Source of the DNA: an uncultured Actinomycetota bacterium
GTDB taxonomy: Bacteria > Actinomycetota > Actinomycetes > Mycobacteriales > Mycobacteriaceae
Length of the DNA: 64,000 nt
Direction of reading: 5' to 3'
NCBI GenBank assembly: GCA_963743225.1
Contig: CAVUPN010000010.1
Location: 16,084-80,083, forward strand
This document shows positions 2,775-44,336 of the stretch, piece after piece. Positions within the stretch are counted from its first letter, which is position 1. Each line of letters opens with the position of its first letter. The notes below the pieces were generated by a model that ran no database searches, was not told the origin of the DNA, and saw nothing but the letters and a program-made list of their open reading frames with translations. Both the position numbers and the translations under genes were made by a program.

Positions 2775-2817
2775 TGGCGTCCACGTCCATGGCTCGAGCG
2801 CCCTAGCATCGGCAGTT

Positions 2818-5091: not shown

Positions 5092-5132
5092 GCCCCCATC
5101 AAACCAAAATCAGCCTTTGGAATGATGGGGGA

Positions 5133-7590: not shown

Positions 7591-7622
7591 CACCATCGAC
7601 AACTATCGAGGAGGTTCACGTC

Positions 7623-9224: not shown

Positions 9225-9281
9225 GACACGCATCGCGACACGCCCGTGCTCGTCGGTGGGCGGCCATAGACTGGCGTCCCT

Positions 9282-18754: not shown

Positions 18755-19140
18755 GACGGTGAGACGACGACAAGGCCTGCGTCGGTAGCGGCGTCAGCTA
18801 GGCGCCTGTCATAGGTAACGAGCGCGCGCAGTTCGGGCACGGACATCGCCGCAGCGAGGTGGATCGCATCGAGAGTGCGTAGCTCAGGCGGCGTGATCGC
18901 CGCCGCGACATCGAGCACGCTTGTCGTCATCGCGACAAAGTTGAGTCCCGCCAGCGCGGTACGTGCGTTCTCGACGGCAGCACCGCGACGGGCCACGGCG
19001 CGCGGCAATTCCGTGCGGGCAATCGCGGCGGATAGCCGGTTGTCGCCCGAGAAGCCCGCCAAATACTGTGCCAGCGCGAGCGACTCAGGCTCTTCGATGA
19101 CGATCTTCACAAGCGCCGACGAGTCGACGTAGATATTCAC
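18751..19140 (-). CDS. vapC: Type II toxin VapC (PIN-domain ribonuclease)
   Basis: 129 aa from the GTG at 19140 (VNIYVDSSALV...). PIN acidic residues are present (D in YVDSS, E in ARTELPRA, D in LDAIHLAAA). GTGA overlap with the antitoxin stop. Confidence 0.85.
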   Translation of the reverse strand: MNIYVDSSALVKIVIEEPESLALAQYLAGFSGDNRLSAAIARTELPRAVARRGAAVENARTALAGLNFVAMTTSVLDVAAAITPPELRTLDAIHLAAAMSVPELRALVTYDRRLADAATDAGLVVVSPS

Positions 19141-19403
19141 GGGCGGTCTTCGCGCTGCCGCTGCAATTCTGCTGAGGCGTCGAAATCGACACTGATCGGC
19201 ACGATGTCCTCTAGGGCACCCGGCGACTCCGCCGGAATGATGTCGCCGCGCAGGATCATGTCTTCCCAGGTGTCGGGACGGGCGGGAACTATGCGGGCCA
19301 CCAGCCGACCTCGTTGGGTTACCTCGACGGTTTCCCCGCGTGCCACACGCGCGATGTATCGGCTCGCGTTCTGGCGCAGTTCCCGAAGCCCGATGCGCTC
19401 CAT
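19137..19403 (-). CDS. vapB: Type II antitoxin (Phd/YefM-like VapB)
   Basis: 88 aa from the ATG at 19403. MERIGLRELRQNASRYIARVARGETVEVTQRGRLVARIVP is a typical Phd/YefM fold N-terminus. The longer ORF to 19685 is not supported. Confidence 0.75.
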   Translation of the reverse strand: MERIGLRELRQNASRYIARVARGETVEVTQRGRLVARIVPARPDTWEDMILRGDIIPAESPGALEDIVPISVDFDASAELQRQREDRP

Positions 19404-20044
19404 GTAGCACATGGTAGCACTTAGCTTACCGCTTCCAATGGCGGCTGCCAACTGCACCAACGCATCGTCGTTGGCGCGGAAGATCGGCTCCAGCGTTACC
19501 CCGCGCTCCTTGGCCGCGCCGGTCAGCAATGACGACCGCTGGCGGTCCGCGAGATCGACGTTGGCGTGGCGGCGATTCGAACTTATCTGTATTGAGGACC
19601 CCCGCAAGTGGTGTGAGTCCATTGTTTTGTTTGGGTCCTCGCTGTCGGCCCATGCTTGGGGGGGTTGACCGTGGTCGGGGGTCAAGGTGGAGCGCCCGCA
19701 GCGCCAGCGAGGACGAACGACCTTGACGCCGACGAGGTCGAGCGCATGCTGTTGGGCGGGGGCGGCGAGGAACTGCTGGTGTTCAAGTCATGTGCTGCCT
19801 CCGGTGGTGGGAGAGGTGTTGTTGTGCGCATGTTGGGGCGTGCCGGCGCCCAGACTTATCTGGGTCCGCGGACAAGGTCCGGCGACATGATGAGGATGGG
19901 GTGCCCGGCGCGCGGGCTAGTGAGGGTTGCGGCCGCTCAGTCTTTCCAGGACGTCCACCCTGGGGATGGGTGGCGACAGTTCGAGTTAGGGAGCGAGTCG
20001 CAGGCATCAGGTGATTGGTGAGCACGGCACGCGCACAGCGCATT

Positions 20045-20530
20045 TCAGGCGACCTGTGGTTCCGGGGTCGGCGGCGCTAGCGCGGCATCGCCGAGCTCAC
20101 GCAGGGTGTGGTAGCAGCGGCACAGCAGCTTACGTTCGACCGCCAGGGTGGGGTTTTTGCCGCTGGCTTGTTTCGTGCCGCGCATCCGCTGGGCCACCTG
20201 GTGGTAGTAGGCGTAATCCGGTGAGCCGGGCCGGGCGGCGCATTTGGCCGCCTCATAGGCTGCCCACCGCAGCGCGGGTGAGCCCTGCTTGGAGAGGTGC
20301 CCCGGGGTGCGTTTGCCATCGGAGGAATACACAGTGACGTCCAGCCCGGCAAAGCGCACCAGCTGATCGGAACTGGAGAACCGGCGGGCGTCGCCGATCT
20401 CAGCCCAGATGATGGCCGCGCACAACCAGCCCACCCCGAAATGGTGGGCTTGCAGTGCCCGGCAACCGGGCTGGCGCTTGGCCAAGTCCACAGCAGTCGG
20501 TTGGCAGTGAGTCGTCAATGGGGTCCGTGA
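20045..20530 (-). mobile_element. IS110-family transposase relic (C-terminal part only)
   Basis: The C-terminal 150 aa of ORF 20045..20626 read ...AAIIWAEIGDARRFSSSDQLVRFAGLDVTVYSSDGKRTPGHLSKQGSPALRWAAYEAAKCA..., the Transposase_20 domain of IS110 elements. There is no DEDD N-terminal domain upstream. Confidence 0.65.
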
Positions 20531-20872
20531 GCGGTCCCGCCAATCGCTGGCGGCATATCGGCGGCCGAAGCTGCATCGGGGACTCTGTGGCCCGCGTCGA
20601 TCGGCTGGATGCCCGGACTTCGGCATGCGTCAATCGGCCATTCGCATCAGCACCTACTCGGTTCGTGCGGTAACCGAGCCTGCACAGCCGTCTGCGGCCA
20701 CGACAGCACTCAATTCCGTCGGCGACCGGCAGCAGTCCCTTTACGGCAAACGAGGGCGTGTTGAAGTTGAGGCAAATGCCTCATGCGCCGAAGTACCGGG
20801 CCCGACGAGCATCGATGCATACGGACCCGACGGACTTGCGGGTGGCGAGACGGCCCCGACGAAAGGCGAGAA

Positions 20873-21259
20873 ATGACGTCGACACATCGCATCGCCTACC
20901 TGCACCGCCTCGTGCCCGCCGCGCTTTTGGCGGTCGCAGCCACACTCGGCGGCAGCGCAATCGGTGAACCCGCAATCGTGCGTGCCGCACCCACCGAAGA
21001 CCCGGAGTGGGACATCGATAAGTACGACCAGTGCATGCGAATTTCTTACAACCGCGCGCAGTGCTGCATCGAATCCGGCGGAGTGTTGATCCCTCCGAAC
21101 GCGGGCGGTGTGTGCCACGCGCCGCCGATCCCAGGCGCTGGCCCAGCCGGTGCGCTACCCGCACCGCCGTCGTCACCGCCCGAGGTGGTCTCCCGCCCCG
21201 GGGTGACCCCGGCTCAGGACGCGGCGACGCAAACACCGCCCCGTCTGCGCGGGTGGTGA
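20873..21259 (+). CDS. Hypothetical small secreted Cys- and Pro-rich protein
   Basis: ATG at 20873 preceded by GAAAGGCGAG. Signal-peptide-like MTSTHRIAYLHRLVPAALLAVAATLGGSAIGEPAIVRA, then a Cys-containing core (CMRISYNRAQCC, GGVC) and a Pro-rich tail. No family recognised. Confidence 0.45.
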   Translation: MTSTHRIAYLHRLVPAALLAVAATLGGSAIGEPAIVRAAPTEDPEWDIDKYDQCMRISYNRAQCCIESGGVLIPPNAGGVCHAPPIPGAGPAGALPAPPSSPPEVVSRPGVTPAQDAATQTPPRLRGW

Positions 21260-21353
21260 CCTTCACGCCAGTGCCGGCCAACCCGGGCTGTGTCGGGAGT
21301 CGTTATTCCGTCGACACTCTGCCATTGCCGTAAATGGGGGTGGACTTGGACGG

Positions 21354-21410
21354 CGAGATCGACGTTAGCGTGCAGCTCACTCGCATTTCGTAACGCTAAC
21401 GTCGATCTCG
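21354..21410. repeat. Perfect 17-bp inverted repeat (18 bp with a T-A closing pair) around a 21-nt loop; possible bidirectional terminator
   Basis: CGAGATCGACGTTAGCG at 21354-21370 pairs with CGCTAACGTCGATCTCG at 21394-21410. It lies between convergent gene ends (21259 on + and 21465 on -). No T-tract follows. Confidence 0.6.
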
Positions 21411-21464
21411 AACAAGACTCGTCCGGACACAGGAGAGCTGCTTCGGATTTAATTGCTCACGACA

Positions 21465-23215
21465 CTAGGAACGGGCGAGAAGGGGGCCGGATAGGACTTC
21501 GCGCAGGATTGCAAACGAATGCCCCTGCAACCGCGTGGATTTCGCGTCGACCGTCGGCTCGCCCCAGGCCAGCACGGGCTCGCCGGTGATCGGGACGACG
21601 ACATCGTCGGAGTTCAGGTTGCACGCGATGGCCAGTGAGCCGCGGTGCATGACGATCCAGCGCTGCTTCTTCGTCGTAGTCGACCTTCAGATGGTCCAGC
21701 CACGGGTCGGCCATGTCGGGCTCGGTGCCGCCGGAGCGCGATGAGCGCGTGGTAGATCCGTCGCAGCCGGCCATGGTCGCCGTCGTCGATCTCGTCCCAG
21801 TTCAGCTTCGACCGCCGGAAGGTCTCGGGATCCTGCGGGTCGGGGATTTCGTCGGCGTCCCAACCGTGTTCGGCGAACTCCCGTCTACGCCCTTCGGCGG
21901 TGGCCCTGGCCAACTCGGGTTCGGGATGGCTGCTGAAGAACTGGAACGGGCTCGACGACCCCCACTCTTCACCCATGAAAAGCAGTGCCGTATAGGGCGA
22001 TCCGAGTGCGAGCGCGGCCTTCACTGCGAGCTGGCCCGATGTCAGATTCTGTGACGGCCGGTCGCCGATCGCCCGGTTGCCGACCTGGTCGTGCGTCAGC
22101 GTGTAGGCCAGTAGCCGGGTGGCCGGGATGGTCGCCGTGTCCAGTGGGCGGCCGTGGCGCCGGTGCCGGAATGACGAATACGTGCCCGCGTGGTAGTAGC
22201 CGTGCTTGAGCGTCTGCGCCAGCGTCTCCAGGGATCCGAAGTCGCCGTAGTAGCCCTGGCGTTCACCAGACACCGCGGCGTGGATGGCGTGGTGGATGTC
22301 GTCGTCCCACTGCGCGGTCATGCCAAGGCCGCCGCGGTCCCGTGGGGTGATCAGGCGCGGGTCATTGCGGTCGCTCTCGGCGATCAGCGACAGCGGCCTG
22401 TCGAGATCTTCTGCCAGCAACGCGGTTTCGGCCGATAACTCCTCCAGGATGTTGAGCGCGGTGGTGTCCACCAGCGCGTGCACGGCGTCCAGCCGCAGGC
22501 CGTCGGCGTGGAAGTCGCGCATCCACCGCAGGGCACAGTCGATGATGTAGCGGCGCACCTCGTCGGCGTCCGCGTCGGAGATGTTGATCGACTCGCCCCA
22601 CGGGTTGCTGCCCGACGACAGGTACGGGCCGAACCTCGGCAGGTAGTTGCCCGACGGGCCGAGGTGGTTGAACACCGCGTCGATCAGCACGCCGAGGCCG
22701 CGGGCATGGCAGGCATCGATGAGCCGGACCAGTGCGTCGGGCCCGCCGTACGGCTCGTGCACGGCATACCAGAGCACACCGTCATAGCCCCAGCCGTGCG
22801 TGCCGCCGAACGCGTTGACCGGCATCAACTCGACGAAGTCCACGCCCAGATCGACCAGATAGTCCAGTTTTTCGATGGTGGAGTCGAAGGTGCCTGCGGG
22901 GGAGAAGGTGCCGACGTGCAGTTCATAGATCACCCGGCCCTCGATCGAGCGGCCTTGCCAGCCGCCGTCCGTCCACGCGTCCGGTGCCGGCTGCCACAGT
23001 TGCGACCGTTCGTGCACTCCATCGGGCTGCCGTGGTGACCGAGGATCGGGCAGGACCGTTGGGTCGTCGTCGAGTACGAACCCGTAGCGAGCATCCGGCC
23101 GCGTGTCGACGCCCGCGCGCCACCACTCGCCGGAGCGGGTCATCGGGTGCAACGTTCCGTCGACGTCGAGACGCACTCTCTCGGGGCGCGGTGCCCACAC
23201 CGAGAATTCAGTCAT
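21465..23215 (-). pseudogene. treZ: Malto-oligosyltrehalose trehalohydrolase with two C-terminal frameshifts
   Basis: The body is in ORF 21614..23215 (GH13 core, ...RLRRIYHALIALRR). The conserved tail continues in ORF 21457..21774 (EPDMADPWLDHLKVDYDEE) and then in ORF 21465..21650 (RGSLAIACNL...GHSFAILR). Shifts are near 21730 and 21665. Confidence 0.85.
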
Positions 23216-29830: not shown

Positions 29831-29920
29831 GGTCGACGGTAAATGTACCTAAGATCGCGGCGCGGCTCATGTCGCGATGGCGCGGTCACCTTCAACAGCA
29901 AAGGGTTAGGCTCGTCTCCC

Positions 29921-31213
29921 ATGCCCGCGTTGACTCCCGCTGAGATCAGCGCGATCGACGCCGCCCACGTTTGGCATCCCTACAGCCCGATCGGCGCCGA
30001 GGCGCTGCCACCGGTGGTCGCCGTCGGAGCGCGCGGCGCGTGGCTGACGCTGATCGACGACGGCACACCGGTCGAGGTGTTCGACGCGATGAGCTCGTGG
30101 TGGACCGCCATCCACGGCCACGGCCACCCGGCACTCGACTACGCCATCGCTTCCCAGCTGGCCAGGATGAACCACGTCATGTTCGGCGGCCTCACCCACG
30201 AGCCGGCGGCCAGGCTGGCCCAGCTGCTGGTGGGGATCACCCCCGACGGGCTGGACACCGTGTTCTTCAGCGACTCCGGCTCGGTCTCGGTCGAGGTCGC
30301 GGTGAAGATGGCCCTGCAGTACTGGCGCAGCCTCGACCGTCCGGGCAAACACCGGCTGATGACGTGGCGCGGCGGCTATCACGGCGACACCTTCACCCCG
30401 ATGAGCGTGTGCGACCCGGACGGCGGCATGCACTCGCTGTGGACCGACATCCTGGCCCACCAGGTTTTCGCCCCGCAGGTGCCCGCCGACTATGACCCCG
30501 GCTACAGCGCCGCCTTCGAAAAGCAGTTGGCCGAGCACGCCGAGGAACTCGCCGCGGTCATCGTCGAGCCCGTCGTACAGGGCGCCGGCGGCATGCGGTT
30601 CCATGACCCGCGGTACCTGACCGACCTGCGGGAGATGTGCACCCGCCACGAGGTACTTCTGATCTTCGACGAGATCGCCACCGGCTTCGGCCGCACCGGT
30701 GAGCTGTTCGCCGCCGACCATGCCGGGGTGAGCCCGGACATCATGTGCGTCGGCAAGGCGCTCACCGGTGGCTATATCACCCTGGCGGCCACGTTGTGCA
30801 CGACGCACATCGCGCACACGATCAGCAGTCACGAGCCGGGGGCGTTGATGCACGGCCCGACGTTCATGGCGAACCCGCTGGCGTGCTCGGTGGCGGTGGC
30901 ATCGGTCGAGCTGCTGCTCGACGGGGACTGGCGGGCACGGGTTCTCGAGATCGAGGAGGGCCTGCGCGCCGGTCTCGAGCCGGCGCGGTCGCTGCCCGGC
31001 GTGGCCGATGTCCGGGTGCTCGGCGCCATCGGCGTGATCGAAATGGCCAAGCCGGTCGACATGCCGGTGGCCACCGCCGCCGCGCTTGCGCAGGGCATTT
31101 GGCTGCGCCCGTTCCGCAACCTGGTCTACGCCATGCCGCCGTACATCTGCACGCCGGACGAGATCGGGCAGATCACTTCCGCGATGGTGGCGGTCGCCGA
31201 TTCCCTGGGATGA
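29921..31213 (+). CDS. bioA: Adenosylmethionine-8-amino-7-oxononanoate aminotransferase
   Basis: I trimmed ORF 29843..31213 to the ATG at 29921 ([22 protein letters not shown]), giving 430 aa. Class III aminotransferase with the PLP lysine in [12 protein letters not shown]. Confidence 0.92.
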
Positions 31214-31254
31214 AAACACAGGTCAGCGCCGTATCGACGGCCTCCAGATCGTCG

Positions 31255-31398
31255 TCAAACAGGTCGGCATACACGTCCAACGTCTGAGGCCGCTCGCTTG
31301 AGGGCAGTGCGTCCCTTGACCAGTTCCCGCTCGAACTCGGCCATGCTCGCGAGTACTCCGATCACCAGTGACACGATGGTCAGGTGAGCGACGGTCGG
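31255..31398 (-). pseudogene. Serine recombinase (resolvase/invertase) relic, about 45 aa
   Basis: The minus-strand frame reads PTVAHLTIVSLVIGVLASMAEFERELVKGRTALKRAASDVGRV then a stop. (L/V)xxxAEFEREL(I/V)xxRT is the conserved end of the serine-recombinase catalytic domain. No N-terminal catalytic Ser region is present. Confidence 0.45.
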
Positions 31399-31469
31399 AA
31401 CGCCGGAGCGCTAGACGGCCCGAGTCGTGGTGACAGGGCTTCGGTTCGTGAGCTGCGGGAGAGGTCGCG

Positions 31470-34400
31470 ATGACGGCGGCGACAGCCTGCCGTACATGCG
31501 GCACTGAACTCCTCGCGAACGCTGGGTTCTGCCACGGCTGTGGCTCACCCGTTGTCGAGTCAGAAACACATGCGGAGTACAAGCAGGTCACCGTGCTGTT
31601 CGCCGATGTGGTGCGGTCGATGGACATCGCGGCCGCGGTGGATATGGAGCGGTTGCGCGAAATCGTGACCGAGCTCGTGGAGCGCGCGGCGGCGGTGGTG
31701 CAGCGCTACGGCGGGACCGTGGACTACACCGGTGACGGAGTGATGGCGATCTTCGGCGCCCCAATCGCATTGGAGGATCACGCTTTTCGGGCATGCCTGG
31801 CCGCACTGGCCATCCAGGAGGAAGCGACCCGCTTGGCGGCCGAGGTGGCCCGCCGCGACGGCCTGGCGCTGCAGCTGCGGGTCGGCCTGAATTCGGGTCG
31901 GGTGATCGCCGGTGACATCGGTTCGGGCTCGCTGGGGTACGCCGCGACCGGCGAGTCGGTCGGGTTCGCGCAGCGGATGGAATCGGCGGCTCCCCCGGGC
32001 GCGGTGATGCTGTCGGAGTCCACCGCGCGGCTGGTCGAGCGAACGGTCACGCTGGCTGACCCGGAGTGGGTGCGCATCAAGGGTGCCGAGGAACCGGTGC
32101 GCGCGCGCCGGCTGTTGGGGATCGGCCCGCGCGAGGGCCTGGTCGGGCACGCCGAGGCGAGCCTGGTCGGTCGGCGCTGGGAGATGGCGGCCCTCGACGC
32201 CATGGTGGAGCGCATGATCGGTGGCCGCGGTGGAGTCGTGGGCGTGGTGGGGCCGCCGGGTATCGGCAAGTCCCGGGTGGCGCGCGAGGCCGCGGCACTG
32301 GCGGCCGGTCGCGGGGTCGAGGTGTTTTGGACCTTCTGCGAGTCCCACGCAAGCGAAATTTCCTTCTATGTCGTGGCGCGACTGCTGCGAGCGGGCGGCG
32401 GCGTGGCTGACCTCGACGGCGACGCCGCCCGCGCCCGGTTGCGGGCCCTTGTGCCCGCCGATGCCGATCCGCAGGATTTGCTACTGCTGGATGATCTGCT
32501 CGGCATCGCCGACCCCGACGTGGCGCTGCCCCCGATCGACCCGGATGCGCGGCGGCGCCGGCTGACCACACTGATCAACACCACGACGCTGGCCCGCACC
32601 GAACCGGCGCTTTACATCATCGAGGATGCCCACTGGATCGATGCGGTCAGCGAGTCGATGCTGGCCGACTTCCTCACCGTCATTCCGCGCACCCCGTCGA
32701 TGGTGCTGATCACCTCCCGCCCCGAGTACCAGGGAGCGCTGACGCGGGTACACGGCGGACAGACGATCGCCCTTGCCCCTCTCGGTCATTCGGACACCGC
32801 GGTGCTGCTGGGTGAGCTGCTGGGTTCGGATCCCTCGGTGGGCGAGCTGGCGGCGATCATCGCCGAACGGGCCGCCGGGAACCCGTTCTTCGCCGAGGAG
32901 ATGGTGCGCGAGTTGGCCCAGCGCGGGGTGCTGGCCGGTGAGCGCGGCGGCTATGTCTGCCACACGAGCGCCGCCGAGGTGAGCGTGCCGGCCACGGTGC
33001 AGGCGGCCATCGCGGCGCGCATCGACCGGCTGAGCACCCCGGCCAGGCGCACGTTGAACGCGGCGTCGGTGATCGGCGCCCGCTTCGGGGCCGAGCTGCT
33101 GACCGCGCTGGGCATCGATGCGGTGGTCGACGAGCTGCTCGGCGCGGAGCTGATCGATCAGGTGCGGTTCACCCCGAGCGCCGAGTACGCCTTCCGCCAT
33201 CCGCTGATCCGCGCGGTGGCCTACGAATCGCAGCTGAAATCCGATCGCGCCCAATGGCACCGGCGCCTGGCCACGGCTATCCAAGAGCGCGAGCCGGCAG
33301 CAGCCGAGGAGAACGCGGCGCTGATCGCCGAACATCTAGAGGCCGCCGGTGATCTGCATGGCGCGTACGGCTGGCACATGCGCGCCGCCGCGTGGTCAAC
33401 CAACCGCGATCTCGACGCTGCCCGGCTCAGCTGGGAGCGGGCACGCCGCATCGCCGACGCGCTGCCTGCCGACGACCCCGACCAGCTGTCGATGCGCATC
33501 GCCCCCCGCACCATGCTGTGTGCCACCGACTGGCAAGACCGAGCAGTCCAGGAAAGCCGGGGCCGCTTCGCGGAGTTGCGGGAGTTGTGCAGCGCGGCCG
33601 GGGACAAGGTCTCGCTGGCCATCGCCATGACCGGGCCGGCAACCGAGCTCGGCTACGCCGGGCGTTCGCGCGAGGGCTCGCGGCTGGCATCCGAACAGAT
33701 GGCGCTGCTGGAGTCGATCGGCGATCCCACCCCGACCATGGGGTTGGCGTTCGATAGCGTTCACCGACTGGTTCGATGCCGGCGAATTCGGCGAGCTCCT
33801 GCGGTGGTCGCAGACCGTCGTCGACCTGGCCGCCGGCGATCCCGCCAAGGGCGCCGGCTTCGGTGTGGGTCACCGCTGGCGGTCGCGTTGACGTGGCGCG
33901 GTGTTGCTCGGTGGTGGCTGGGCCGTCCCGGGTGGCGCCAAGACCTCGATGACGCCGTCGCGATGGCCCGAACGCAGCGACCCGACAACCCTCGTCGCTG
34001 TCGTCACCTGGGCCTACGGTTGGGCGATTCACTACGGGGTGCTTCGGGCCGATGACTCCGCGGTGCGCGCGATCGAGGAGGCGGTGCAGACCGCCGAAGG
34101 GACCAGCAACGATGTCGCACTGACCGTGGCCGAGTACGCGCTGGGTGGCGTGCTGCTGAGTCGAGACGCCGCGGCCGACCGTCACCGCGGGCTGGAGCTG
34201 ATGGGGCAGTACCACGATATCGCGCTGCGCAGGCAGGCTGGTCTTCAGATGCGTCCCGGTCATCGAGTTGTGGGCCGCCCGGGAGAGGGCCAGGCGCGGC
34301 GACCGCGATGCTGCCATTGCGGTGATGCGCGAGGCCGTGGACGAGCTGCACCAGGCAGGACGGCCCGGATATGGCGTTTGGGGCACCGGCGTTCTGGTGG

Positions 34401-34669
34401 AGACGCTGCTGGAGCGTGGCACCGAGGGCGACCTGGCCGAAGCCCAAGAGGCGATCGACCGGTTGGCGAACGTGTCGGCCGATCAAGGTTCGGCGATGAG
34501 CGAGATCACGCTGCTGCGGCTGCGCGCACTGCTGGCCAAGGCGCACGGCGATGAGGCCGCCCATCGCGACTACCGGGACCGCTACCGCGCCATGGCGACA
34601 TCCCTTGGGTTCGAGGGGCATATCGACTGGGCGAAGGCGATGACCGAGGGCGACACGAGGTCACGGTGA
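31470..34669 (+). pseudogene. Zinc-ribbon / class III adenylate-guanylate cyclase / AAA(STAND) ATPase / TPR regulator with about 4 frameshifts in the TPR region
   Basis: ORF 31470..34055 covers the CxxC..CxxC ribbon, the cyclase domain (VTVLFADVVRSM, GDGVMAIFGAP) and the Walker A (GPPGIGKS). Past about 33750 the conserved sequence hops frames: DWFDAGEFGELLRWSQTVVDLAAGDPAKGAGFGVG (+1), back to frame 0, then ORF 33901..34554, then ORF 34268..34669. Confidence 0.8.
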
Positions 34670-36260
34670 TGCGTCCTCACCCCCGTCCTTAATATCGTCG
34701 TCTTTGCCGCCGCTAAGTGCCTTCTTGATGCTGTCGGAAAACTTGGTCATGACCTTCTTGACGTCACTGCGGGCGTCCTTGAACGCATCTCGCGCAGGTG
34801 TCTTTCGCGCGGGTCCTGCGATGGACGTGGGGGAGCCGTTGTCGTCACCGCTGGACTTCACGATCGTGCGCCCGTTCCCGATCACCGACTTCACCGCACC
34901 AATGGACTCGTTGATTCGATGCATGAACGCCGGCAGCTTTTGACCAACCTTGCCCGGGTCTGCCTCGACATGTCCTTGGATGTCGACCGACTCCGGAAGC
35001 GGTGACCCCACCGCGGGCGGCTTCTCTGGCGCCGGCCCGACGCGCGCCAGCTCCACGACCGCGTCCCCATCCTCGCTGGCCGGTGGGACCGGAATGCGCA
35101 GCGGCGGCGGCGAACCGATGAGAGCCGCCGCGTTGGTGATGCCCTCGCCGACTGCGTCGACGAGATCGCCGGCCACCGTCGCCGGGTTGAGTGGCGGGAT
35201 CAGCCGTGCCGGGGTGGGTTCCCACGGGTCAATGCTGCGGTCATAGCCCAGTTCCACGATCTCCCGAAAGAACGGCTCGACCACATCGATCACCGGCTCG
35301 GGCACCCTCAGGGTGCGCAGCGGACCGAACAACGGCAGGTCCTCGGTCTCGAAGAAGTAGTAGTCGGTGTCACCGTACTTGCCCTGGTAGGCGGCGGCTG
35401 TCGTCGGATCGGCAGCCAGGCTGACGTCGAACGGGTACGTGTGCACGTAGACGAAGCCCAGGACCGCGTTCATGAGGGAGATGCCGTTGAGCGGATACAA
35501 CGGGAAATCGGCCATGAAGTCGTACTGGCGGGTGATCTCCACCGTGTCGAACTGGGTGTCGGTCGGCGCGGGACCGTTGAACGACAAATCGAGGATCGGG
35601 ATGTAGAGGCCCGGGAACCGCGCAAGAAAGCCCCCGTTGGGAAGATTGGGGTCACCGCCCAGCACGAAGTCGATATCGGGGGCTTGGTTCCCTTCGGGTA
35701 CTGCTCGGCGAGCTTGCGCTTCTCCCGGTTCGCGATGACCGCGCTCTGCGAGTAGCCGTAGATCACCAGATGGTCGTTGGGGTGCGCGGCGATCGCCCGC
35801 CTCCAGATCGGCGACCCCGTCCTGGACCGACTGATTGAGGGTGAGGTCGAAGAGCCCCGTGAGATTCCACCACGGCACGTCCCACCCTGGGCCGCCAGGC
35901 CCGAAAAGCTCCGGGGACCCGAGCCCGAGGCCGAGCAGCGAGACGAGGCGACCAAGCCCCGCGACGGGCCAAAACCCCTCGGGCGTCGTCACCGCGATCG
36001 TACTCGATCTGGCCCGGATGCGTCGGCGCGATGAACTGGTTCTTGACCGACTCGACGTAGAAGTCATCGGGCGTCGGGACGCCGCTCGTGCCCATGATCA
36101 AGGCGCACGTTACGTCGGTCTTCGTACACGGCGGGCTCGAGGCCGACAGCCGCACCTCCGGCGACACCGTCGACACCGGCATGACCGTGGCCGCCACCGC
36201 CAGGGCTGCGACGCCGATCGACACCGTCATCCGCGTGGCGGCGTACTTTGCGTTTCCCAT
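34661..36260 (-). pseudogene. Secreted PE-PPE (PF08237) serine-hydrolase-like protein with about 3 frameshifts
   Basis: Signal peptide and start are in ORF 35763..36260 (MGNAKYAATRMTVSIGVAALAVAA...ALIMGTSGVPTPDD). The body is in ORF 34661..36067. The catalytic segment AIAAHPNDHLVIYGYSQSAVIANREKRKLAEQYP is only in ORF 35470..35955. Shifts are near 36000, 35797 and 35680. Confidence 0.75.
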
Positions 36261-36692
36261 CGCCTCTCCTTCGTCCTCGCGAAACGATGGCCACCGTGTC
36301 CGGTGTCGAGCTTCGCGGCGGAAATTGTCATTCGCGTGGGGGGAGACGAGCTCAGTAGTGGACTACTGCAATCTCGCGGGTTTCGGCGCGGTACTACCTA
36401 GCCGCGATCTTGAGTCCGCGGGCGTGGCGCGACGGAGATCACCCGGAGCGTGGGCCCTCTGGTGGATGAGGTGGGCCGAGGTGATGCCGTGACGGCGGCC
36501 CTTCTGCAACGCTCTCTCGGCAGGCGTCTCATTACTACTCAAGGGCGGAAGATGAGACACCTCGTTGTGAGACGAACTTCTGAGACGACGCGACGTGCGG
36601 AATCACGCGCCCAGCAAGGGGATCGATGCGTGTCGCAGATGTGCTTGAGCTCTTTCGAGACGCCGATGATGGCTGCGCGCCTGGGCGGTGAG

Positions 36693-36746
36693 GAGATCGG
36701 GCAGATCACCTCCGCGATGGTCGGCGTCGCGCGTGCACTAACCTGA
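36693..36746 (+). pseudogene. Orphan duplicate of the last 18 codons of bioA
   Basis: 36693-36722 matches 31160-31189 at 29 of 30 nt (GAGATCGGGCAGATCAC[C/T]TCCGCGATGGT). It encodes [10 protein letters not shown] and reaches a TGA the same 54 nt downstream as in the intact bioA. Confidence 0.6.
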
Positions 36747-36756
36747 ACGCTGTTCA
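36744..36756. promoter_or_regulatory. BioQ-type operator TGAAC-GCT-GTTCA upstream of bioF
   Basis: Perfect 5+3+5 palindrome 18 nt upstream of the bioF GTG, followed by the RBS GGAGAGGAG. It matches the TGAAC-N3-GTTCA site described for M. smegmatis BioQ. Confidence 0.65.
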
Positions 36757-36773: not shown

Positions 36774-37922
36774 GTGACCCGCGTAGACGTTTCCCCGCTG
36801 GCCTGGCTCGACGAGGTCGAGCGTCAGCGCCGCGCGGCGGGATTGCGCCGATCGCTGCGCGCGCGGCCGCCGGTGGGCGCGGAGCTCGATCTGGCGTCCA
36901 ACGACTACCTCGGCCTGTCCCAGCATCCCGACGTGATCGAGGGCGGCGTCGCCGCGCTGCGCATCTGGGGCGCGGGGTCGTCCGGGTCCCGGCTGGTCAC
37001 CGGCAACACCGAACTTCATGAGGGCTTCGAGTCCGCGCTCGCCGATTTCGTCGGCGCCGAGTCCGCGCTGGTGTTCTCGTCGGGGTACACCGCCAATCTC
37101 GGTGCGGTCGTCGCGCTGTCCGGGCCGGGCTCGCTTCTGGTGTCGGACGCGCTGACCCATGCGTCGCTGGTCGACGCGTGCCGGTTGTCGCGGGCGCGCG
37201 TGGCGGTGACGCCGCATCGGGACGTGGCCGCGGTGGAACGGGAGCTGGCGTCTCGCGACGAGGAGCGCGCGGTGGTGATCACGGACTCGGTGTTCAGCGC
37301 CGGCGGTGACCTCGCCCCGGTGCGTCAGCTCCACGACGTGTGCAGGCGCCACCGCGCGCTGCTGATCGTCGACGAGGCGCACGGGCTCGGCGTCCGGGGG
37401 ACCGGTGGGCGTGGCCTGCTCGAGGAGGTCGGGCTGGCCGGTGCGCCCGACGTCGTGGTGACGATGACGATGTCCAAGGCGTTGGGCAGCCAGGGCGGTG
37501 CGGTGCTGGGGCCGGCCGCGGTGCGCGATCATCTCGTCGACGCGGCGCGGCCGTTCATCTTCGACACCGGTCTTGCTCCTGCCGCAGTGGGCGCGGCGTG
37601 GGCGGCGCTGCGGGTGCTGGAGGCCGAACCCTGGCGGGCGCAGGCGGTGCTGCGCCACTCCGCCGAGCTGGCCCGAGTGTGCGACGTCCCCGACCGACCG
37701 GAATCGGCGGTGGTTTCGGTGATTCTCGGTGAACCCGAGGTGGCGTTGGCCGCCGCGACCGCGTGCCTGGACCGGGGTGTGCGGGTGGGCTGCTTCCGCC
37801 CGCCGACGGTGCCTGCGGGCACCTCGCGGCTGCGGCTCACGGCGCGTGCATCGCTGTCCGACGAGGAGATGGCGTTGGCACGCCGCGTGCTCACGGAAGT
37901 GCTGACAACGGCCCGCTCGTGA
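36774..37922 (+). CDS. bioF: 8-amino-7-oxononanoate synthase
   Basis: 382 aa with a GTG start. Class II aminotransferase fold. PLP lysine in [13 protein letters not shown]. Confidence 0.92.
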
Positions 37923-38599
37923 GCGTTGTCGTCGTCTCGGGCACCGACACCGGCGTCGGCAAGACGGTGGCCACCGCGGCGCTGGCGTGTCATGCGCGGC
38001 TGGCCGGGATCGACGTCGCGGTGTGCAAGCCGGTTCAGACCGGCAGTGCCGACGGCGACGACGATCTCGCCGAGGTCGGGCGGCTGTCCGGCATCACCGA
38101 ATTACACGGCCTCGCACGCCTTCCCGAGCCACTGGCCCCCGCCGCGGCGGCGCAGCGGGCCGGGGTGCCGCTGCCCACGCGCAGGGACCTGGGCTCGGCG
38201 ATCGCCGAGGTGGACCGGCCGGGGTGGTTGACGTTGGTTGAGGGCGCGGGAGGTCTGCTCGTCGAGATCGGTGCGGGCGGTGTGACGCTGCGCGATCTCG
38301 CGCTCGATCTCGCCGCGCCGGTGCTGGTGGTGGTCAGACCGGGGCTGGGCACGCTGAACCACACCGCTTTGACCCTGGAAGCGCTTGCCTCACACAATGT
38401 TTGGTGCGCCGGGCTGGTGATCGGTGCGTGGCCCCGCGAACCGGGGACCGTCGAGGCCGACAACCGCGACGTGCTGGACAGGCAGGCGCCGGTGCGGGCG
38501 GTGCTGCCAGACGGGGCGGGAGCGCTGAGCGCAGCGGAGTTCGAGTCGATGAGCGCTTCCGCGTTCGACTCGCAGTGGGTCGCTAGCCTGGTCGGCTGA
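37919..38599 (+). CDS. bioD: Dethiobiotin synthetase
   Basis: I trimmed ORF 37763..38599 to the GTG at 37919 (GTGA overlap with the bioF stop), giving 226 aa. P-loop [13 protein letters not shown]. Confidence 0.9.
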
Positions 38600-39109
38600 T
38601 GGTCCATTCCGTCGAGCTGGTCTTCGACGCGGACACCGAGGCGGTGATCCGGCAGATCTGGGAGCGACCTGCGCGACGCGGGGATCCCCAGCCAGGCGCC
38701 GGCCAGCCGCCCGCACGCGACGCTGACGGTGGCCGAACGGATCGACCCCGCCGTGGACGAGTTGCTGGTCGGTCTGGCCGATCGTTTCCCGTTTTCGTGC
38801 CGGATCGGCGCGCCACTGCTGTTCGGTCGGGCCAAGGTGGTGCTGGCCCGGCTGGTGGTGCCGACGATCGAGCTGCTCGACGTGCACGCCGAGGTGTACC
38901 GGCTGTGCGTGCCACACTTGCAGCCCGGCCCGATGTCCAACGCGCAGCCCGGCCAGTGGACCGGACATGTCACGTTGGCCCGCCGACTGGTGCCCGCCCA
39001 GCTGGGCCGCGCGCTGCGGATCGCGGGCAAGCCGTCGGAGATCAAGGGCAGCGTCGTGGGGCTGCGCCGCTGGGACGGCAAGTCCAAGCGCGAGTACCCG
39101 ATCGCCTGA
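38599..39109 (+). pseudogene. 2H phosphoesterase / 2'-5' RNA ligase superfamily protein (Rv1571-like) with one frameshift
   Basis: The start [22 protein letters not shown] is in ORF 38599..39141. The rest (SDLRDAGIPSQAPASRPHATLTVAERID...TGHVTLARR), with both HxT motifs, is in the frame of ORF 38729..39109. The shift is near 38662. Confidence 0.7.
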
Positions 39110-39197
39110 CGTCAGCATCTAAATCCGTAGGTCAACGGTGAAGTCTCCGGGTTTTCCCTGATGATTTGCGGCTCCTGGTCATCGCAGGCTGGCTAGC

Positions 39198-42100
39198 ATG
39201 AGCGGACCTGATCCACGCACGGAGACGTTGAACTGGAGCGACCTGGGCGTGAGCGAACTGCCGACCGGCACGGTGACGCTGCTTCTCGCCGACGTCGAAG
39301 GATCGACCCGGCTGTGGGAGACCCAGCCTGACGAGATGACAGATGCGGTCGCACGCCTCGACCGCGCTTTGACCGATCTGGTGGCGTCCTACAAGGGCGT
39401 GCGACCGGTCGAACAGGGCGAGGGGGACAGCTTCGTGGTGGCGTTCGCCCGCGCCGGCGACGCGGTGGCCTGTGCGCTGAAGCTGCAGCAGGCACCACTT
39501 GCTCCGATCCGGCTCCGCATCGGCGTGCATACCGGTGACGTGCGGATGCGCGACGAGGGGAACTACATCGGCCCCACCGTCAATCGGACCGCGCGGCTGC
39601 GCGATCTTGCCCACGGTGGCCAAACCGTGCTTTCGGGTGTCACTGAGGAGCTGGTGTTCGACCAGCTGCCGGACGGCGCGTGGCTCAGCGATCTGGGCAC
39701 ACACGAGTTGCGCGATGTTGCGCGTCCGGAACGGGTTGCGCAGCTGTGCCATCCCGATCTTCGCAATGAGTTCCCACCGCTGCGAGTGCCTAAATCAACT
39801 GCGCAACAACGACTCCCGGCACAGTTCACGAGGTTCGTTGGCCGCGGCCCCCAGATGGCAGAGGTGCGCCAGCTTCTCGCCGAGCACCGCCTTGTCACGC
39901 TTACGGGCGCGGGCGGCGCAGGCAAGACCCGTCTCGCGATAGAGATTGCGGGCCAGATAGCCGATGAGTTCGACGATGGCGTGTGGTACGTCGACCTGGC
40001 ACCGATCACCCATCCCGATCTCGTGGCCGTCACGGTCGCTCGAGCGTTCGGGCTGCCGGATCAACCCGGCAGCACGCCTGTGGACACGCTCGTGCGGTTC
40101 ATCGGTGACCGACCGATGCTGCTGGTCCTGGACAACTGTGAGCATCTTGCCGATGCGTGTGCGGCGATGACGGCCGCACTGCTGGGGGCGTGTTCCGCGG
40201 TGACGCTCCTTGCGACCAGCCGCGAGCCCATCCGGGCCGCCGGGGAGATCACGTGGGGGGTTCCGTCGCTATCGCTGGAAGACGAAGCCATCGAGTTGTT
40301 CACCGACCGCGCCCGTCAGTCCCGCCCGGACTTCGTCGTCACCGACGACAACGCCGCCACGTTGACCGAAATCTGTCTCCGCCTCGACGGCATGCCGCTG
40401 GCGATCGAACTCGCCGCTGCGCGCATCCGTGCGCTGTCACCGACCGAGATCGTCGACAGCCTCCACGACCGATTCCGCCTCCTGACCGGCGGCGCCCGAA
40501 CTGCGGTGCGTCGCCAGCAGACGTTGCGCGCCTCGGTGGATTGGTCGCACGCGTTGTTGACCGAACCCGAGCAGGTGCTGTTTCGCCGGCTGTCGGTATT
40601 TTTGGGCGGGTTCGACCTCGACGCCGCACAGGCGGTGTGCGGCGGCCATGATGTCGAGCGTTACCAAGTGCTGGATCAGCTCACCCTGCTCGTCGACAAG
40701 TCGCTCGTGGTGGCCGAACACATCAAGGACCGGACGCGATACCGCCTGCTGGAGACGGTGCGCCAGTATGCGCTGGAAAAGCTCGGCGAATCGGGCGAGG
40801 CGGATGCGGTGCGTACCCGGCACCGCGACTATTACACGGCGGGTGCGGCGCAATTGGATGTCGCTGCGGACGTCGGCCGGGAGGCGCGGCTCGATCAGGC
40901 CGAAGCGGAGATCGACAACCTCCGGGCAGCTTTCGCCTGGAGCCTCGAGAACGGCGAGATCGAGCCGGCCTTGCGGCTGGCATCGTCGCTGCAGCCGACT
41001 GTGGCTGACGCGCGGGACGCGTCGTGGAAGGGTTGGGTTGGCTGGACACGGCGCTCGCCGAGAAGGCCGCTGACAGTGCCGACGTGCGGCCAGCGCGCGG
41101 GCGCGCACTCGCGGACAAGGCCCTGCTGCTCGCGAATGTAGGCGTCGACCGATAGCGAGCTTGGAGGCCGCTGAGCAGGCACTGACGCTTGCGCGCGAAC
41201 TCGGCGATCCGGCCCTGCTGGTACGGGCGCTCGTGTCACGCGGGTCTATCAGTGCGTACGACGCCGAGGTGTCGCTGCCGTATCTCGAGGAGGCGGCCGA
41301 CCTCGCCCGTCAACTCGGTGACTCGTCACGGTTGAGCCAAATCCTCAGCTGGCAGGCGACTGCGGCGCTGATGGCCGGTGACATGGTGGCGACGATCGTG
41401 GCCGCCGAGGAAGGGCTCGACCTCGCCGATGCCATCGGGGACCGGTTCGTTTCGCGGCAGTGCCGTGTGTGGCTCGCTAATGCGCAGGTGTACCGCGGTG
41501 ATCTGGCCGGGGCGGTCTCCAGATGCGACGAGGCGATCGCCGAGGCGGCGGCAGCACACGATGTCCTCATGCAGGCGATCGGCACTGATGGGCCAGACTT
41601 TCACGCTGGCTTTGCAAGGCGACGTGAGCGGTGCGCGGACGACCGCGGAGAAGACCGTGCAGATCTCATCCGAGCTTGGCGAGTACTACGACTTAGCTTC
41701 CTCGGGGGGAGTCGCTCTCGCGTGCTTGGCCGCCGGCGATGCCGATGCAGCGTGGGAGGCCACTGAGGCGGCAAGGGAGCACACCAGCTCGGCAGCCCAT
41801 GACAACGGGAATCTTCGTCGTCTGGGCGGCCCAGGCCGCGTTGGGGCGCGGCGATCTACCCGCCGCCCGCCGCTGGGCCGACGAGGCCGTGTCGATGACG
41901 AAGGGCGTCTTTTTGTCGTGGGCGCTGGTGACGCGTTCCCGCGTCGAAATCACCGATGGCGAGCCGCAACTCGCTGATCGTGACGCCCATGAAGCGCTCG
42001 GCATCGCCGCCGATGTCGGGGGGCACCTTCTCATTCCAGAGATTCTCGAGCGTCTCGCCGACGTGGCCCGAGAGGCCGACAGTCACCCCGAAGCGGCGCG

Positions 42101-42515
42101 GTTCCTCGGAGCGGCGGACGCGATTCGCGGGCGCATGGGGGCGGTCCGCTTCAAGGTTTTCGACGCGGCCCATGAGGAAGCCGTTTCGGCGGTCCGTGCG
42201 GCATTGGGCGACAACGACTTCGACGAGGCGTGGGCCGAAGGCGCAGCCCTGACGATCGAGGAAGCGATCGCGTATGCCCAGCGCGGCCGCGGCGAACGCA
42301 AACGGCCGACTAGCGGGTGGGCATCGCTCACTCCGACGGAGCGTGATGTTGTGCGACTCGTCGGCGAAGGCCTGGCCAATAAGGACGTCGCCGCAAGGCT
42401 TTTCGTCTCACCACGAACAGTTGAGTCGCACCTCACGCATGTTTACACAAAGCTCGGACTGTCCTCCAGGGTCCAACTCGCGCAAGAGGCAACCCGGCGC
42501 GGAGAAGGCGACTAG
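39198..42515 (+). pseudogene. Adenylate cyclase / NB-ARC-type ATPase / TPR / LuxR-HTH regulator (Rv0386/Rv1358/Rv2488c type) with at least 5 frameshifts
   Basis: ORF 39198..41141 holds the cyclase (LLLADVEGSTRLWE, RIGVHTGDV) and the P-loop (GAGGAGKTRLA). The TPR part hops through four further frames (a short stretch of about 5 codons, 41015-41155, ORF 41161..41766, ORF 41378..41977) into ORF 41739..42515, which ends in the LuxR HTH (LTPTERDVVRLVGEGLANKDVAARLFVSPRTVESHLTHVYTKLG). Confidence 0.8.
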
Positions 42516-42877
42516 GGGACAGTCGCCGCAACCTTTTTCGGCACACACATCCGCCACGCCTCGATGACGATCTCGCGGAGCTCGACGAGGTCGATCGCGT
42601 CGAGCCGGACGTGGACCCAGTTGTATCTCATGTCGGACGGCCTCGGCAGCATGAACTTGTCGGGCTCGGACGCAACCAGTCCGGCGCGCTCCTCCTTGGG
42701 GAAGGCAAAACCCATCACGGTCTCGTCGCGCGAGAACGCCAGGTAGACGATCTGCCCGATGCGGAACTTGATGCGGTCGCGCACGACCACCTCGTAGGAC
42801 CTGGGCAGGGTCGAGGTTATGCGCCGCACATCAGCGACGGTGATCATGTTCGCGACGTTAGTCGGGCCGTCCGACAA
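42512..42877 (-). CDS. MmcQ/YjbR family DNA-binding protein
   Basis: 121 aa. VADVRRITSTLPRSYEVVVRDRIKFRIGQIVYLAF...MRYNWVHVRLD fits the YjbR fold family. Its stop overlaps the LuxR pseudogene stop. Confidence 0.7.
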   Translation of the reverse strand: MSDGPTNVANMITVADVRRITSTLPRSYEVVVRDRIKFRIGQIVYLAFSRDETVMGFAFPKEERAGLVASEPDKFMLPRPSDMRYNWVHVRLDAIDLVELREIVIEAWRMCVPKKVAATVP

Positions 42878-42929: not shown

Positions 42930-43706
42930 GTGGCCAAGCAATCGGACGACGATAACGACCGGGCTTCCAAGTGGAGCCCCGGTCAAACGCATTGGTGGAC
43001 AACCACGGCCATCGCGATCATCGGAGCCATCGTCGGCGGTACCTCGCTGATCATGAATTTCTTCTACCACCCGAGCCCGCCGCCCATCACCATCGACTCC
43101 GGTCATTCGGAATTCATGAAGCTGAGCTATTCGGACCGCATCGACCGGTGCGTGCCGTACATCTCCGAGCACCTCGATGCATGGCGCGACAAGTGGCGAA
43201 CCGCGCTGGACGATTCCGGCGGCTCGCACCAGAAGGCACCGGTGCCCTATGCGGGCCTTGGCGACGCCGACGGGGCGGGCCAGGGGATCGTGAACACCTA
43301 CCTCGCGGTGGTGAACTACGCCGAAAAGATCGCACCTACCGACGAGGGCGAGAATTTGTTGTCCTGCGTGTTCGCACCCGTGCTGAAAATGGACCCGAAC
43401 AACAGCTATCCGGATGTCGAGTCGCTTGTCGGGAGCGGCGACGAGGCACCCAAAGCCGACAACCTCGTCGTACGCGAAAGCCCGGTCTACGACCAGGGCG
43501 AATTCGCCGGTGTCACCGCCGAGGGGCGCCCGAGCAAGATCGTCGAGGTGATCATCCGGCCGGGCAAGAGCGAATCGCACCGGCAGTTGGGATTCGCGAT
43601 CGTGGGCGGTCACGACCAAGGGGTCCGCATGTGGGCTCTCAACGCGTCAGTGAACGCGGGCAGTCCGCAGTGGATGAACGACATCCAGAACTATCGGGGC
43701 TTTTAG
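42930..43706 (+). CDS. Hypothetical membrane-anchored protein, no recognised family
   Basis: 258 aa with a GTG start. It has one N-terminal TM (WWTTTAIAIIGAIVGGTSLIMNFFY) and then a soluble domain. By eye it is less GC-rich than its neighbours. Confidence 0.5.
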   Translation: MAKQSDDDNDRASKWSPGQTHWWTTTAIAIIGAIVGGTSLIMNFFYHPSPPPITIDSGHSEFMKLSYSDRIDRCVPYISEHLDAWRDKWRTALDDSGGSHQKAPVPYAGLGDADGAGQGIVNTYLAVVNYAEKIAPTDEGENLLSCVFAPVLKMDPNNSYPDVESLVGSGDEAPKADNLVVRESPVYDQGEFAGVTAEGRPSKIVEVIIRPGKSESHRQLGFAIVGGHDQGVRMWALNASVNAGSPQWMNDIQNYRGF

Positions 43707-44308
43707 ACGGGTGATTCCCGTCGCGCCGCGGTGAACGCTCCCTGCACGTTCAAGCCGTCGACGAGCAGTGCGAGCCCGAAACCGAACCGCTTGCTCGCAT
43801 CGTCGGCGAGCACGGACTGCTCGTCCGGCAGTTCTGCGCCTGCGGCGTCCCACTGCAGCCGGGACTGCTCGTCGGCCGTGAATCCGAGCACGTAGTAAAC
43901 GACCGTTCGTGCGGCCAACTCGGCGTGCGCCCGTTCGACTCCTGCATCGGTGGCGGCCTCGGCCAAACGGGCCAAGATGTGCGCCATCGCCTCCGACTGG
44001 CCGGCGGCGAAGCTGGCCGACACCAACTCGGCGCCGTCGGTGTGCGACAGCAAGGCGTCCCGCAGGCGCGTGCAGATGCCGGAGAGACGGTCGTGCCACC
44101 CACCAGGGGCATCTTCGGCCGCCGCCGGCTCCAGGATGCGGTCGGCGACCGCGCCGAGCAGCTGCTGCTTGTTGGCGAAATGCCAGTACAGCGTGCCGGG
44201 GGAGACGTTGAGCTCGCGTCCCAGCCGCCGCATCGTCAGGTCGGCGATCCCGTAGTTGTCCAGGATCGCCGTCGCCGCATCGACCACGTCGCGTTTGTGG
44301 AGCTGCAC
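43703..44308 (-). CDS. bioQ: TetR-family repressor, BioQ-like (divergent from bioB)
   Basis: 201 aa with a GTG start. TetR HTH is DLTMRRLGRELNVSPGTLYWHFANKQQLL. Only 46 nt separate it from bioB, and that gap contains a TGAAC-N3-GTTCA palindrome. Confidence 0.7.
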   Translation of the reverse strand: MQLHKRDVVDAATAILDNYGIADLTMRRLGRELNVSPGTLYWHFANKQQLLGAVADRILEPAAAEDAPGGWHDRLSGICTRLRDALLSHTDGAELVSASFAAGQSEAMAHILARLAEAATDAGVERAHAELAARTVVYYVLGFTADEQSRLQWDAAGAELPDEQSVLADDASKRFGFGLALLVDGLNVQGAFTAARRESPV

Positions 44309-44323
44309 ACCCGTACCCTAACC

Positions 44324-44336
44324 TGAACGGCGTTCA
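44324..44336. promoter_or_regulatory. BioQ-type operator TGAAC-GGC-GTTCA in the bioQ-bioB intergenic region
   Basis: Perfect palindrome 16 nt from the bioQ start and 19 nt from the bioB GTG. The 22-nt context CTAACCTGAACGnnGTTCAAGT matches the bioF site at 20 of 22 positions. Confidence 0.65.

Follow-up and report, generated by a model that had tools for sequence, protein, structure and literature searches.

A fossil genomic island at the 3' end of bioA in a mycobacterial biotin locus, very probably inserted by a tyrosine integrase

Scanning representative genomes with the BioA protein gave 80 loci, and in about 40 mycobacterial loci bioF begins 20-100 nt after bioA. Why, then, do 5.5 kb separate the two genes in the 64,000-nt stretch analysed here (the window; contig CAVUPN010000010.1 of an uncultured member of the Mycobacteriaceae), and why does a second copy of the bioA end stand directly before bioF? 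A first-pass annotation had interpreted the two copies and the block between them as attL, cargo and attR of an element that entered the 3' end of bioA with a replacement terminus of its own, and had named a serine recombinase as the integrating enzyme. Our analysis indicates that the block is very probably a fossil genomic island, placed in the last ~55 nt of bioA by site-specific insertion through a tyrosine integrase. Four parts of this reading are observed: how the junctions are built, that relatives have an empty site, that intact sister elements exist, and that the block has decayed. The empty site and the sister junctions agree with the proposed attL/cargo/attR layout, whereas the responsible enzyme class is that of a tyrosine integrase relic which the annotation had overlooked. 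The coordinates of the features are collected in Table 1.

The duplication of the bioA end is real, and chance is ruled out as its origin. The terminal 54 nt of bioA (31160-31213, copy 1) recur at 36693-36746 (copy 2) in the same reading frame; both copies encode 17 residues and are closed by TGA, as the annotation had described, while its count of 29 matches in the first 30 nt has to be lowered to 28, the mismatches lying at positions 18 and 30. Identity is 28/29 in the core and 41/54 in total, and a repeat finder returned a longer pair (31157-31197 / 36690-36730; 41 nt, 36/41 identical, 88%). On the 5' side of the core the two copies are unrelated, and their similarity begins abruptly at the core. 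Searched with up to three mismatches, the 29-mer occurs in two places only within the window, which are the two copies and not parts of a longer dispersed repeat, and none of 100 dinucleotide-preserving shuffles contained two such matches. Direct repeats of the core thus bracket the insert, as they do in islands inserted by tyrosine integrases.

The relatives with adjacent bioA and bioF provide the empty site. In L002, L003 and L007 the alignment with the window is continuous to 31198 and resumes at 36691, and the 5.5 kb are therefore an insertion located precisely between the two copies; the insert is delimited by exactly the type of alignment that had been suggested as a check. An empty chromosomal attachment site (attB) in relatives, with the insert lying exactly between the repeats, is again the arrangement of a tyrosine-integrase island. 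In these three loci as well as in L008, L012, L022, L026, L038, L043 and others, bioA ends in ...VARALT*, bioF lies directly 3', and the bioA stop overlaps a TGAAC-N3-GTTCA palindrome, as copy 2 does. Judged by its sequence, copy 2 represents the ancestral bioA end, since its ARALT* tail and the palindrome match the native end in relatives and copy 1 does not; copy 1 is foreign and was supplied by the element. This is where the annotation had placed the old gene end, abutting the bioF operator, and the bioA ends of the relatives confirm it. The bioA gene of the window otherwise matches the Pfam family Aminotran_3 over nearly the entire profile (E=8.8e-112, profile positions 10-401 of 403) and is syntenic with relatives as far as 31198, but its tail, ...VAVADSLG*, resembles the element tails VGVADSLG* (L242) and VGVADSVG* (L233) and not the native ...ARALT*.

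Table 1. Features of the bioA-bioF region, in window coordinates (a dot marks a feature without strand).
Feature	Position	Strand	Remarks
bioA	29843..31213	+	intact but chimeric, with a host body and the last ~8 codons supplied by the element
attL common core	31160..31188	+	29 nt; looser repeat 31157-31197
Element-derived replacement bioA tail, TGA stop and attL arm remnant	31189..31235	+	matches sister elements
Tyrosine integrase relic	31224..31284	-	last conserved 20 codons, including the catalytic Tyr position (LDVY)
Small serine recombinase relic (resolvase/invertase, alpha-E helix region)	31286..31398	-	weak profile matches
Adenylate cyclase / AAA_16 (STAND-type) ATPase / TPR pseudogene	31470..34669	+	at least 3-4 frameshifts
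Secreted PE-PPE-domain hydrolase pseudogene	34661..36260	-	3 frameshifts; Pfam PE-PPE 6.5e-47
Element right arm	36261..36692	.	no recognisable gene; last 12 nt conserved in sister elements
attR common core	36693..36721	+	28/29 against the attL core; alignment of relatives resumes at 36691
Stranded native bioA tail, ...GVARALT*	36722..36746	+	bioA-end type of the empty-site relatives
BioQ-type operator palindrome TGAAC-N3-GTTCA (TGAACGCTGTTCA)	36744..36756	+	overlaps the old stop, precedes bioF
bioF	36774..37922	+	intact; Pfam Aminotran_1_2 3e-59; 91% protein identity to L002 bioF
bioD	~37919..38599		follows bioF; GTG at 37919

The class of the integrating enzyme is indicated by the sequence just past the new bioA stop, where the minus strand translates to TLDVYADLFDDDLEAVDTAL. 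Actinobacterial tyrosine integrases have this signature at their C-terminus, and the position of the nucleophilic tyrosine is part of it; the peptide agrees with the L233 integrase (TLDVYADLFDDDLEAVATAL) in 19/20 residues. Over ~61 nt, the relic shares 95% of its DNA sequence with L241, 90% with L242 and 87% with L233. At least seven other loci have an integrase beside bioA (L010, L001, L081, L233, L234, L241 and L242). All of these genes stand tail-to-tail with bioA and are intact, except that of L001, which is cut by the contig end; L001 has the closest BioA among the representative genomes and shows the arrangement of L010 until the contig stops. The integrases match Pfam Phage_integrase (1.2e-27) as well as SAM-like and arm-binding domains, and those of L010 and L233 contain the segments TGLRWGE, TKAHKQR, HDLRH, GHAS and LDxY, corresponding to the R-K-HxxR-H-Y catalytic set. 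The L010 enzyme has 389 aa, ends in ...TLDLYAELFDDDLEAVATAL... and lies 27 nt past the bioA stop. A protein search with it returned a large mycobacterial clade, while L081, L233/L234, L241 and L242 were found by context. An integrase gene beside one att site is thus a regular feature of these loci, preserved in the window as the 20-codon relic only: everything upstream of codon ~340 is gone, and a deletion between the relic and the post-stop arm has taken, by comparison with L233, ~74 bp of the attL arm and the C-terminal tail of the integrase. The closest relative found, L241 (88.9% identity over 9.7 kb, up to window position 31239), has an intact integrase in an element of more than 10 kb.

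In the GenBank phage collection no close relative of these integrases was found, the nearest being those of the Gordonia phages Finkle and Gsput1 (47-49% identical); the elements are therefore not known phages. The L010 integrase as a query against IMG/VR and JGI/ENA metagenome contigs gave mostly matches below 50% identity, many of them from the human gut, and among the closer matches none adjoined bioA.

Two of the sister elements, L233 (10,001 bp core to core) and L242 (10,422 bp), are complete with both bioA and bioF and allow the two junctions to be compared directly with those of the window. The attL of L233 reads ...AGATCGAGCAGATCACCTCGGCGATGGTGGGGGTCGC followed by GGATTCTGTGGGGTAA and gives the bioA tail VGVADSVG*; its attR reads ...AGATCGCGCAGATCACCTCGGCGATGGTGGGGGTCGC followed by CGGTACGTTAACCTGAACACCGTTCA, with the tail VGVAGTLT* and then bioF. 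The corresponding tails of L242 are VGVADSLG* at attL and VGVARALT* at attR, and in both elements the attR tail is followed by TGAAC-N3-GTTCA and bioF. Sister elements supply ADSLG*, ADSVG* or AQSSG* as the new end of bioA, and the last five residues are identical in L242 and the window (ADSLG*). Here, too, the pattern is that of a tyrosine-integrase island, in which an end supplied by the element keeps the target open: bioA is full length and ARALT* is stranded at attR. The similarity extends beyond the tails. By blastn, window 31100-31235 matches L233rc 9859-9994 with 87% and L241 with 89% identity, and the post-stop arm AAAACACAGGTCAGCGCCGTATC is common to the L233, L241, L242, L010, L081 and L001 elements, following the pattern A(A/C)nCGCAG(G/T)TCAgcGCC. 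On the other side, the 12 nt directly left of the attR core are CTGGGCGGTGAG in the window, CTGGGCGGCGTG in L242 and CTGGGGTGCGAG in L233; the attR of L010, L081 and L241 would fall beyond the 10-kb flank, which those elements exceed. With arms, cores and tails in common, the window shows every junction feature of the bioA element family. A 98-aa open reading frame (ORF; 36450-36746) that spans the right arm and runs into the stranded bioA tail has no Pfam match and most likely owes its existence to the junction.

The cargo of the sister elements differs from one to the next. L233 encodes, within 1222-11193, an XRE-type helix-turn-helix (HTH) protein, an Xis-like HTH_17 protein, a DUF6011 protein, a Toprim primase, an HNH-like protein and a 204-aa prohead protease (Peptidase_S78 6.6e-32), with no recognisable capsid gene, and may be either a satellite-like element or a prophage remnant. 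A D5_N/DUF5906 primase-helicase is encoded in L242, a 1505-aa Mrr_cat/DEAD-helicase protein resembling a defence gene product in L241 (586-5103), and a group II intron reverse transcriptase in L081 (2520-4025).

Based on these comparisons, we propose the following multistep scenario, in which (i) the attachment site of the circular element (attP) would hold a copy of the bioA segment encoding EI(G/A)QITSAMV as the common core of 29-41 nt, followed by the element's own eight-codon tail (..ADSLG) and a stop codon; (ii) recombination with the chromosome would yield an attL composed of host bioA, core, element tail and stop, beyond which the integrase gene would point towards bioA; (iii) the attR product would consist of the element right arm, core, native ..ARALT*, the BioQ-type operator and bioF-bioD, a layout in which bioA would remain a complete ORF and bioFD would keep its own operator and ribosome-binding site; (iv) later deletion would have stripped the integrase to 20 codons and removed ~74 bp of the attL arm, while a small serine invertase among the cargo would have been reduced to ~35 codons and both other cargo genes frameshifted, with loss of mobility. 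The core of the window has T at 31177, where attR, the attB of relatives and most sister attL cores have C (the attL core of L081 also has T). Unless this T is a later mutation, we infer that the crossover took place left of 31177, within 31160-31176. The cyclase and PE-PPE genes may have arrived with the element or later.

A duplication of the bioA end might also arise in the absence of site-specific recombination, either through homologous recombination with a foreign bioA or through a duplication followed by partial deletion that left a bioA stub. The replacement tail is indeed bioA-like, with the overall identity expected of a diverged gene copy. However, the copies are similar only from the core on, with unrelated sequence upstream; bioA is syntenic up to 31198 and no more diverged from relatives than its flanks; and other genomes have the identical junction type, tail and arm sequences included, around different cargo, which is the signature of an attP. 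We therefore consider this explanation very unlikely.

The proposal that a serine recombinase integrated the block, in the manner of the large serine integrases of phiRv1 and Bxb1, was prompted by a remnant at 31255-31398 near attL. A peptide of this kind is present (...VIGVLASMAEFERELVKGRTALKRAAS... / ...SMAEFERELVKGRT...), and it weakly matches both Pfam Resolvase and the DNA invertase family phrog_125. In the profile check, the phrog_125 match has E=0.0029, and the Resolvase match (E=0.014, 15.9 bits) stays below the cut-off of 23.3 bits and covers profile positions 111-137 of 145, the alpha-E helix only; a PDB sequence search with the relic returned no match. Its nature becomes clearer in L010, where window 31286-31341 aligns, inverted and with 81% identity, to 13414-13358 within a 75-aa truncated invertase (HTH_7 E=4.8e-11, phrog_125 E=1.7e-16). 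There, the alpha-E helix runs directly into HTH_7, an architecture that marks the protein as a small resolvase/invertase and not a large serine integrase, and the gene is oppositely oriented and ~2 kb away from the att site. We take the peptide in the window for a weak but real fragment of such a small invertase, probably decayed cargo of the element that was moved beside the integrase stump by deletion. The remnant itself thus stands, but as cargo and not as the integrase. L233 and L242 share the same attL and attR, yet their Pfam gene lists contain no serine recombinase, whereas a tyrosine integrase adjoins attL in every intact member. No large serine integrase, with its catalytic and recombinase domains and zinc ribbon, was found beside the att site, and in place of a very short core in a disrupted target there is a core of 29-41 nt in a rebuilt bioA. 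The cores known from serine integrases measure 2-12 bp, and the genes they target are not rebuilt. A target-restoring repeat as long as the one seen here, 29-41 nt, is typical of tyrosine integrases and atypical of large serine enzymes, that of phiRv1 among them. Integration by a serine recombinase is accordingly extremely unlikely.

The decay of the block that we ascribe to a tyrosine-integrase island is most evident in its two larger genes, both of which the first-pass annotation had recognised as decayed. The cyclase pseudogene retains matches to Guanylate_cyc (7.6e-22) and AAA_16 (1.1e-22), and its intact homologues comprise 1050-1060 aa and are at most 84% identical. With one of them, the 1060-aa protein P0128, tblastn covers 31470-34648 in frames 3, 1 and 2; a plot of GC content at third codon positions by frame and three-frame translations place the frame switches near 33755, 33870, 33960 and 34260. 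The PE-PPE hydrolase is likewise found as three pieces in three frames (signal peptide and N-terminus, GYSQS segment, C-terminal part), with switches near 36000, 35800 and 35690. Looked up as exact sequences, neither the bioF protein of the window nor its 861-aa cyclase ORF returned a record. Sequences related to the window were found only in soil and sediment metagenomes. Some soil-metagenome contigs (at least 90% alike) differ from it by 1-nt indels at 33754, 33869, 35683-35685, 35800 and 35998, which are the frameshift sites, suggesting that both genes exist in unbroken form among related soil strains; at these sites, other contigs are like the window. An assembly artefact, that is, a chimeric contig or a mis-join at the repeat, might be suspected since a soil metagenome assembly is the probable source of the window and the region is rich in frameshifts, but it is the least credible explanation of all: the attL and relic region (31094-31487, 31178-31397 and 31266-31606) and the attR junction (36554-36712) are both spanned, with few mismatches, by short-read contigs that four runs in two studies yielded, the frameshifts are confined to the cargo (at least 6 in 4.8 kb, against none in 5.4 kb of bioA, bioF, bioD and the upstream acyltransferase gene), and the sister loci reproduce the anatomy of the window.

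Several points nevertheless weigh against reading the block as a tyrosine-integrase island. Of the integrase, the window retains only 20 codons, and its role is deduced from the sister loci; excision or a circular form has been observed for no member of the family. HTH regulators and primase, which form the backbone of the sister elements, are all gone from the window, only the ends and the invertase fragment being left, and the present cargo may not be original to the element, the cyclase and PE-PPE genes being carried by none of the sister elements seen. Finally, the two copies differ by one mismatch within the 29-nt core and by three in the next 9 nt.

Comparison with described systems places the bioA elements in a known element type: the event is an ordinary one and involves no new mechanism, and what is new is the attachment site at the 3' end of bioA. 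The closest parallel is provided by the attB-8 prophages of M. abscessus, which also employ a tyrosine-type integrase (Int-Y) and an attB in the 3' end of a protein gene, MAB_2979; they integrate seven codons before its stop and replace the C-terminus, leaving a protein that is probably functional (Dedrick et al. 2021, PMC8092301). In contrast to the bioA elements, they are full prophages of 40-60 kb with cores of 3-25 bp and another target gene, and the serine-integrase (Int-S) systems described in the same study have short cores of 5-8 bp and disrupt genes (PMC8092301). The bioA elements are islands of ~10 kb or larger that lack a full set of virion genes and have a core of 29-41 nt, and the copy in the window is a fossil. 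Elements that target tRNA genes, such as mycobacteriophage L5 and the pSAM2-type integrative and conjugative elements of actinomycetes (AICEs; PMC2440964), resemble them in that attP mimics the 3' end of the target, the target is rebuilt, the integrase adjoins the att site and direct repeats bracket the island. They differ in the target, which for the bioA elements is a protein gene; the window holds no tRNA gene, and neither tRNA genes nor Rfam families were found in the region. The transfer gene that defines AICEs, FtsK/SpoIIIE, is missing from the Pfam lists of L233 and L242, which are not exhaustive in that many ORFs lack a Pfam match; of the transfer gene and replication module that characterise AICEs, only primase-type genes are present in L233 and L242.

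Like the bioA elements, phiRv1 is a prophage-like element in a mycobacterial biotin gene neighbourhood. Its integration depends on a large serine integrase, is directed to REP13E12 repeats between bioD and bioB and leaves no gene end rebuilt; none of these features applies to the bioA element. The ~10-kb phage satellites, or phage-inducible chromosomal islands, carry an integrase, a regulator, a primase and a few capsid-related genes; L233 has genes of these types, including the prohead protease, in 10 kb. No helper phage, packaging signal or induction is known for the bioA elements, such genes are gone from the window copy, and the cargo of L242, L241 and L010 is different. A literature search found no description of bioA as an attachment site, in line with the annotation: matches to bioA with att or integrase wording were to BioAnalyzer or bioactive, and whole-word searches for bioA, attL and attR returned nothing relevant.

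The 3' end of bioA thus joins the mycobacterial attachment sites, with an empty site, two intact elements and a fossil as a worked example. For annotation, the island explains the 5.5-kb gap between bioA and bioF, the stray in-frame bioA tail before bioF and the dead genes between them. An integrase and attP from a sister element could serve as an additional vector integration system for mycobacteria in which bioA and bioFD remain usable.

Integrases related to the bioA type occur at other sites. P0005, P0009 and P0022 (loci L230-L232 and L236-L240), which are 74-80% identical to the bioA type, stand tail-to-tail with the 3' end of nrdF, encoding the small subunit of ribonucleotide reductase, with nrdE a few kb away; one of these loci is in an M. 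abscessus subsp. massiliense genome. The nrdF-site loci have the post-stop arm and GCCCACATTTTGCCCACAC repeats in common with the bioA elements. In L082 (11141-11300), integrase P0008 abuts a 30-codon membrane ORF whose end (..GDCVG*) and post-stop arm resemble the bioA tail supplied by the elements; no tRNA gene is present there, and an attR was not found within 10 kb. This ORF may be a third target of the integrase clade.

P0008 is 80-87% identical to the bioA-type integrases, which are 78-90% identical to one another, and few residues separate the integrase groups, for example positions 86 and 273, of which 86 lies in the core-binding domain. We tentatively suggest, as a possibility that we would not yet favour, an undescribed clade of mycobacterial tyrosine integrases (74-90% mutual identity) whose target sites would be the 3' ends of three or more protein genes unrelated to each other: bioA, nrdF and the 30-codon membrane ORF. 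The mimic of the target end seems to be specific to each member, while the post-stop arm is shared. With the second att copy beyond reach at the nrdF and L082 loci, re-targeting within the clade is a lead, not a result; if true, the clade would constitute a naturally re-targetable integrase scaffold with orthogonal attB/attP pairs for mycobacterial genetics.

Linkage of bioA and bioF is not universal in the genus. Within 10 kb 3' of bioA, bioF is not found in L013, L019, L020, L025, L030 and L033, which comprise several slow-growing mycobacteria and metagenome-assembled genomes, and no integrase is present there. L013, L019, L020 and L033 were considered as further examples of insertion and rejected, as they have a different native arrangement (in L019, MmpL/MmpS genes free of integrases).

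Downstream of the island, the operator palindrome ends 17 nt ahead of the GTG of bioF. The motif TGAAC-N3-GTTCA occurs only twice in the window (chance expectation 0.01), and the other copy, at 44324-44336, lies just upstream of a TetR-family gene (43703-44308) that is probably bioQ; it faces a region corresponding by alignment to the sequence 3' of bioD in relatives. In M. smegmatis, BioQ sites are located upstream of bioF and of bioQ/bioB (PMC5640590).

Two further blocks distinguish the window from its relatives. Downstream of bioD, where relatives have ~0.5 kb, a window-specific block (39102-42519) holds one large cyclase / STAND ATPase / TPR / LuxR(GerE) gene that is frameshifted into at least 4 ORFs, a regulator of the same kind as the decayed cyclase gene of the island. 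Between ilvA and treZ, a block at 18752-21545 that is absent in L002, L003 and L007 contains a PIN-domain toxin, a Phd/YefM antitoxin and a C-terminal fragment of an IS110-family transposase.

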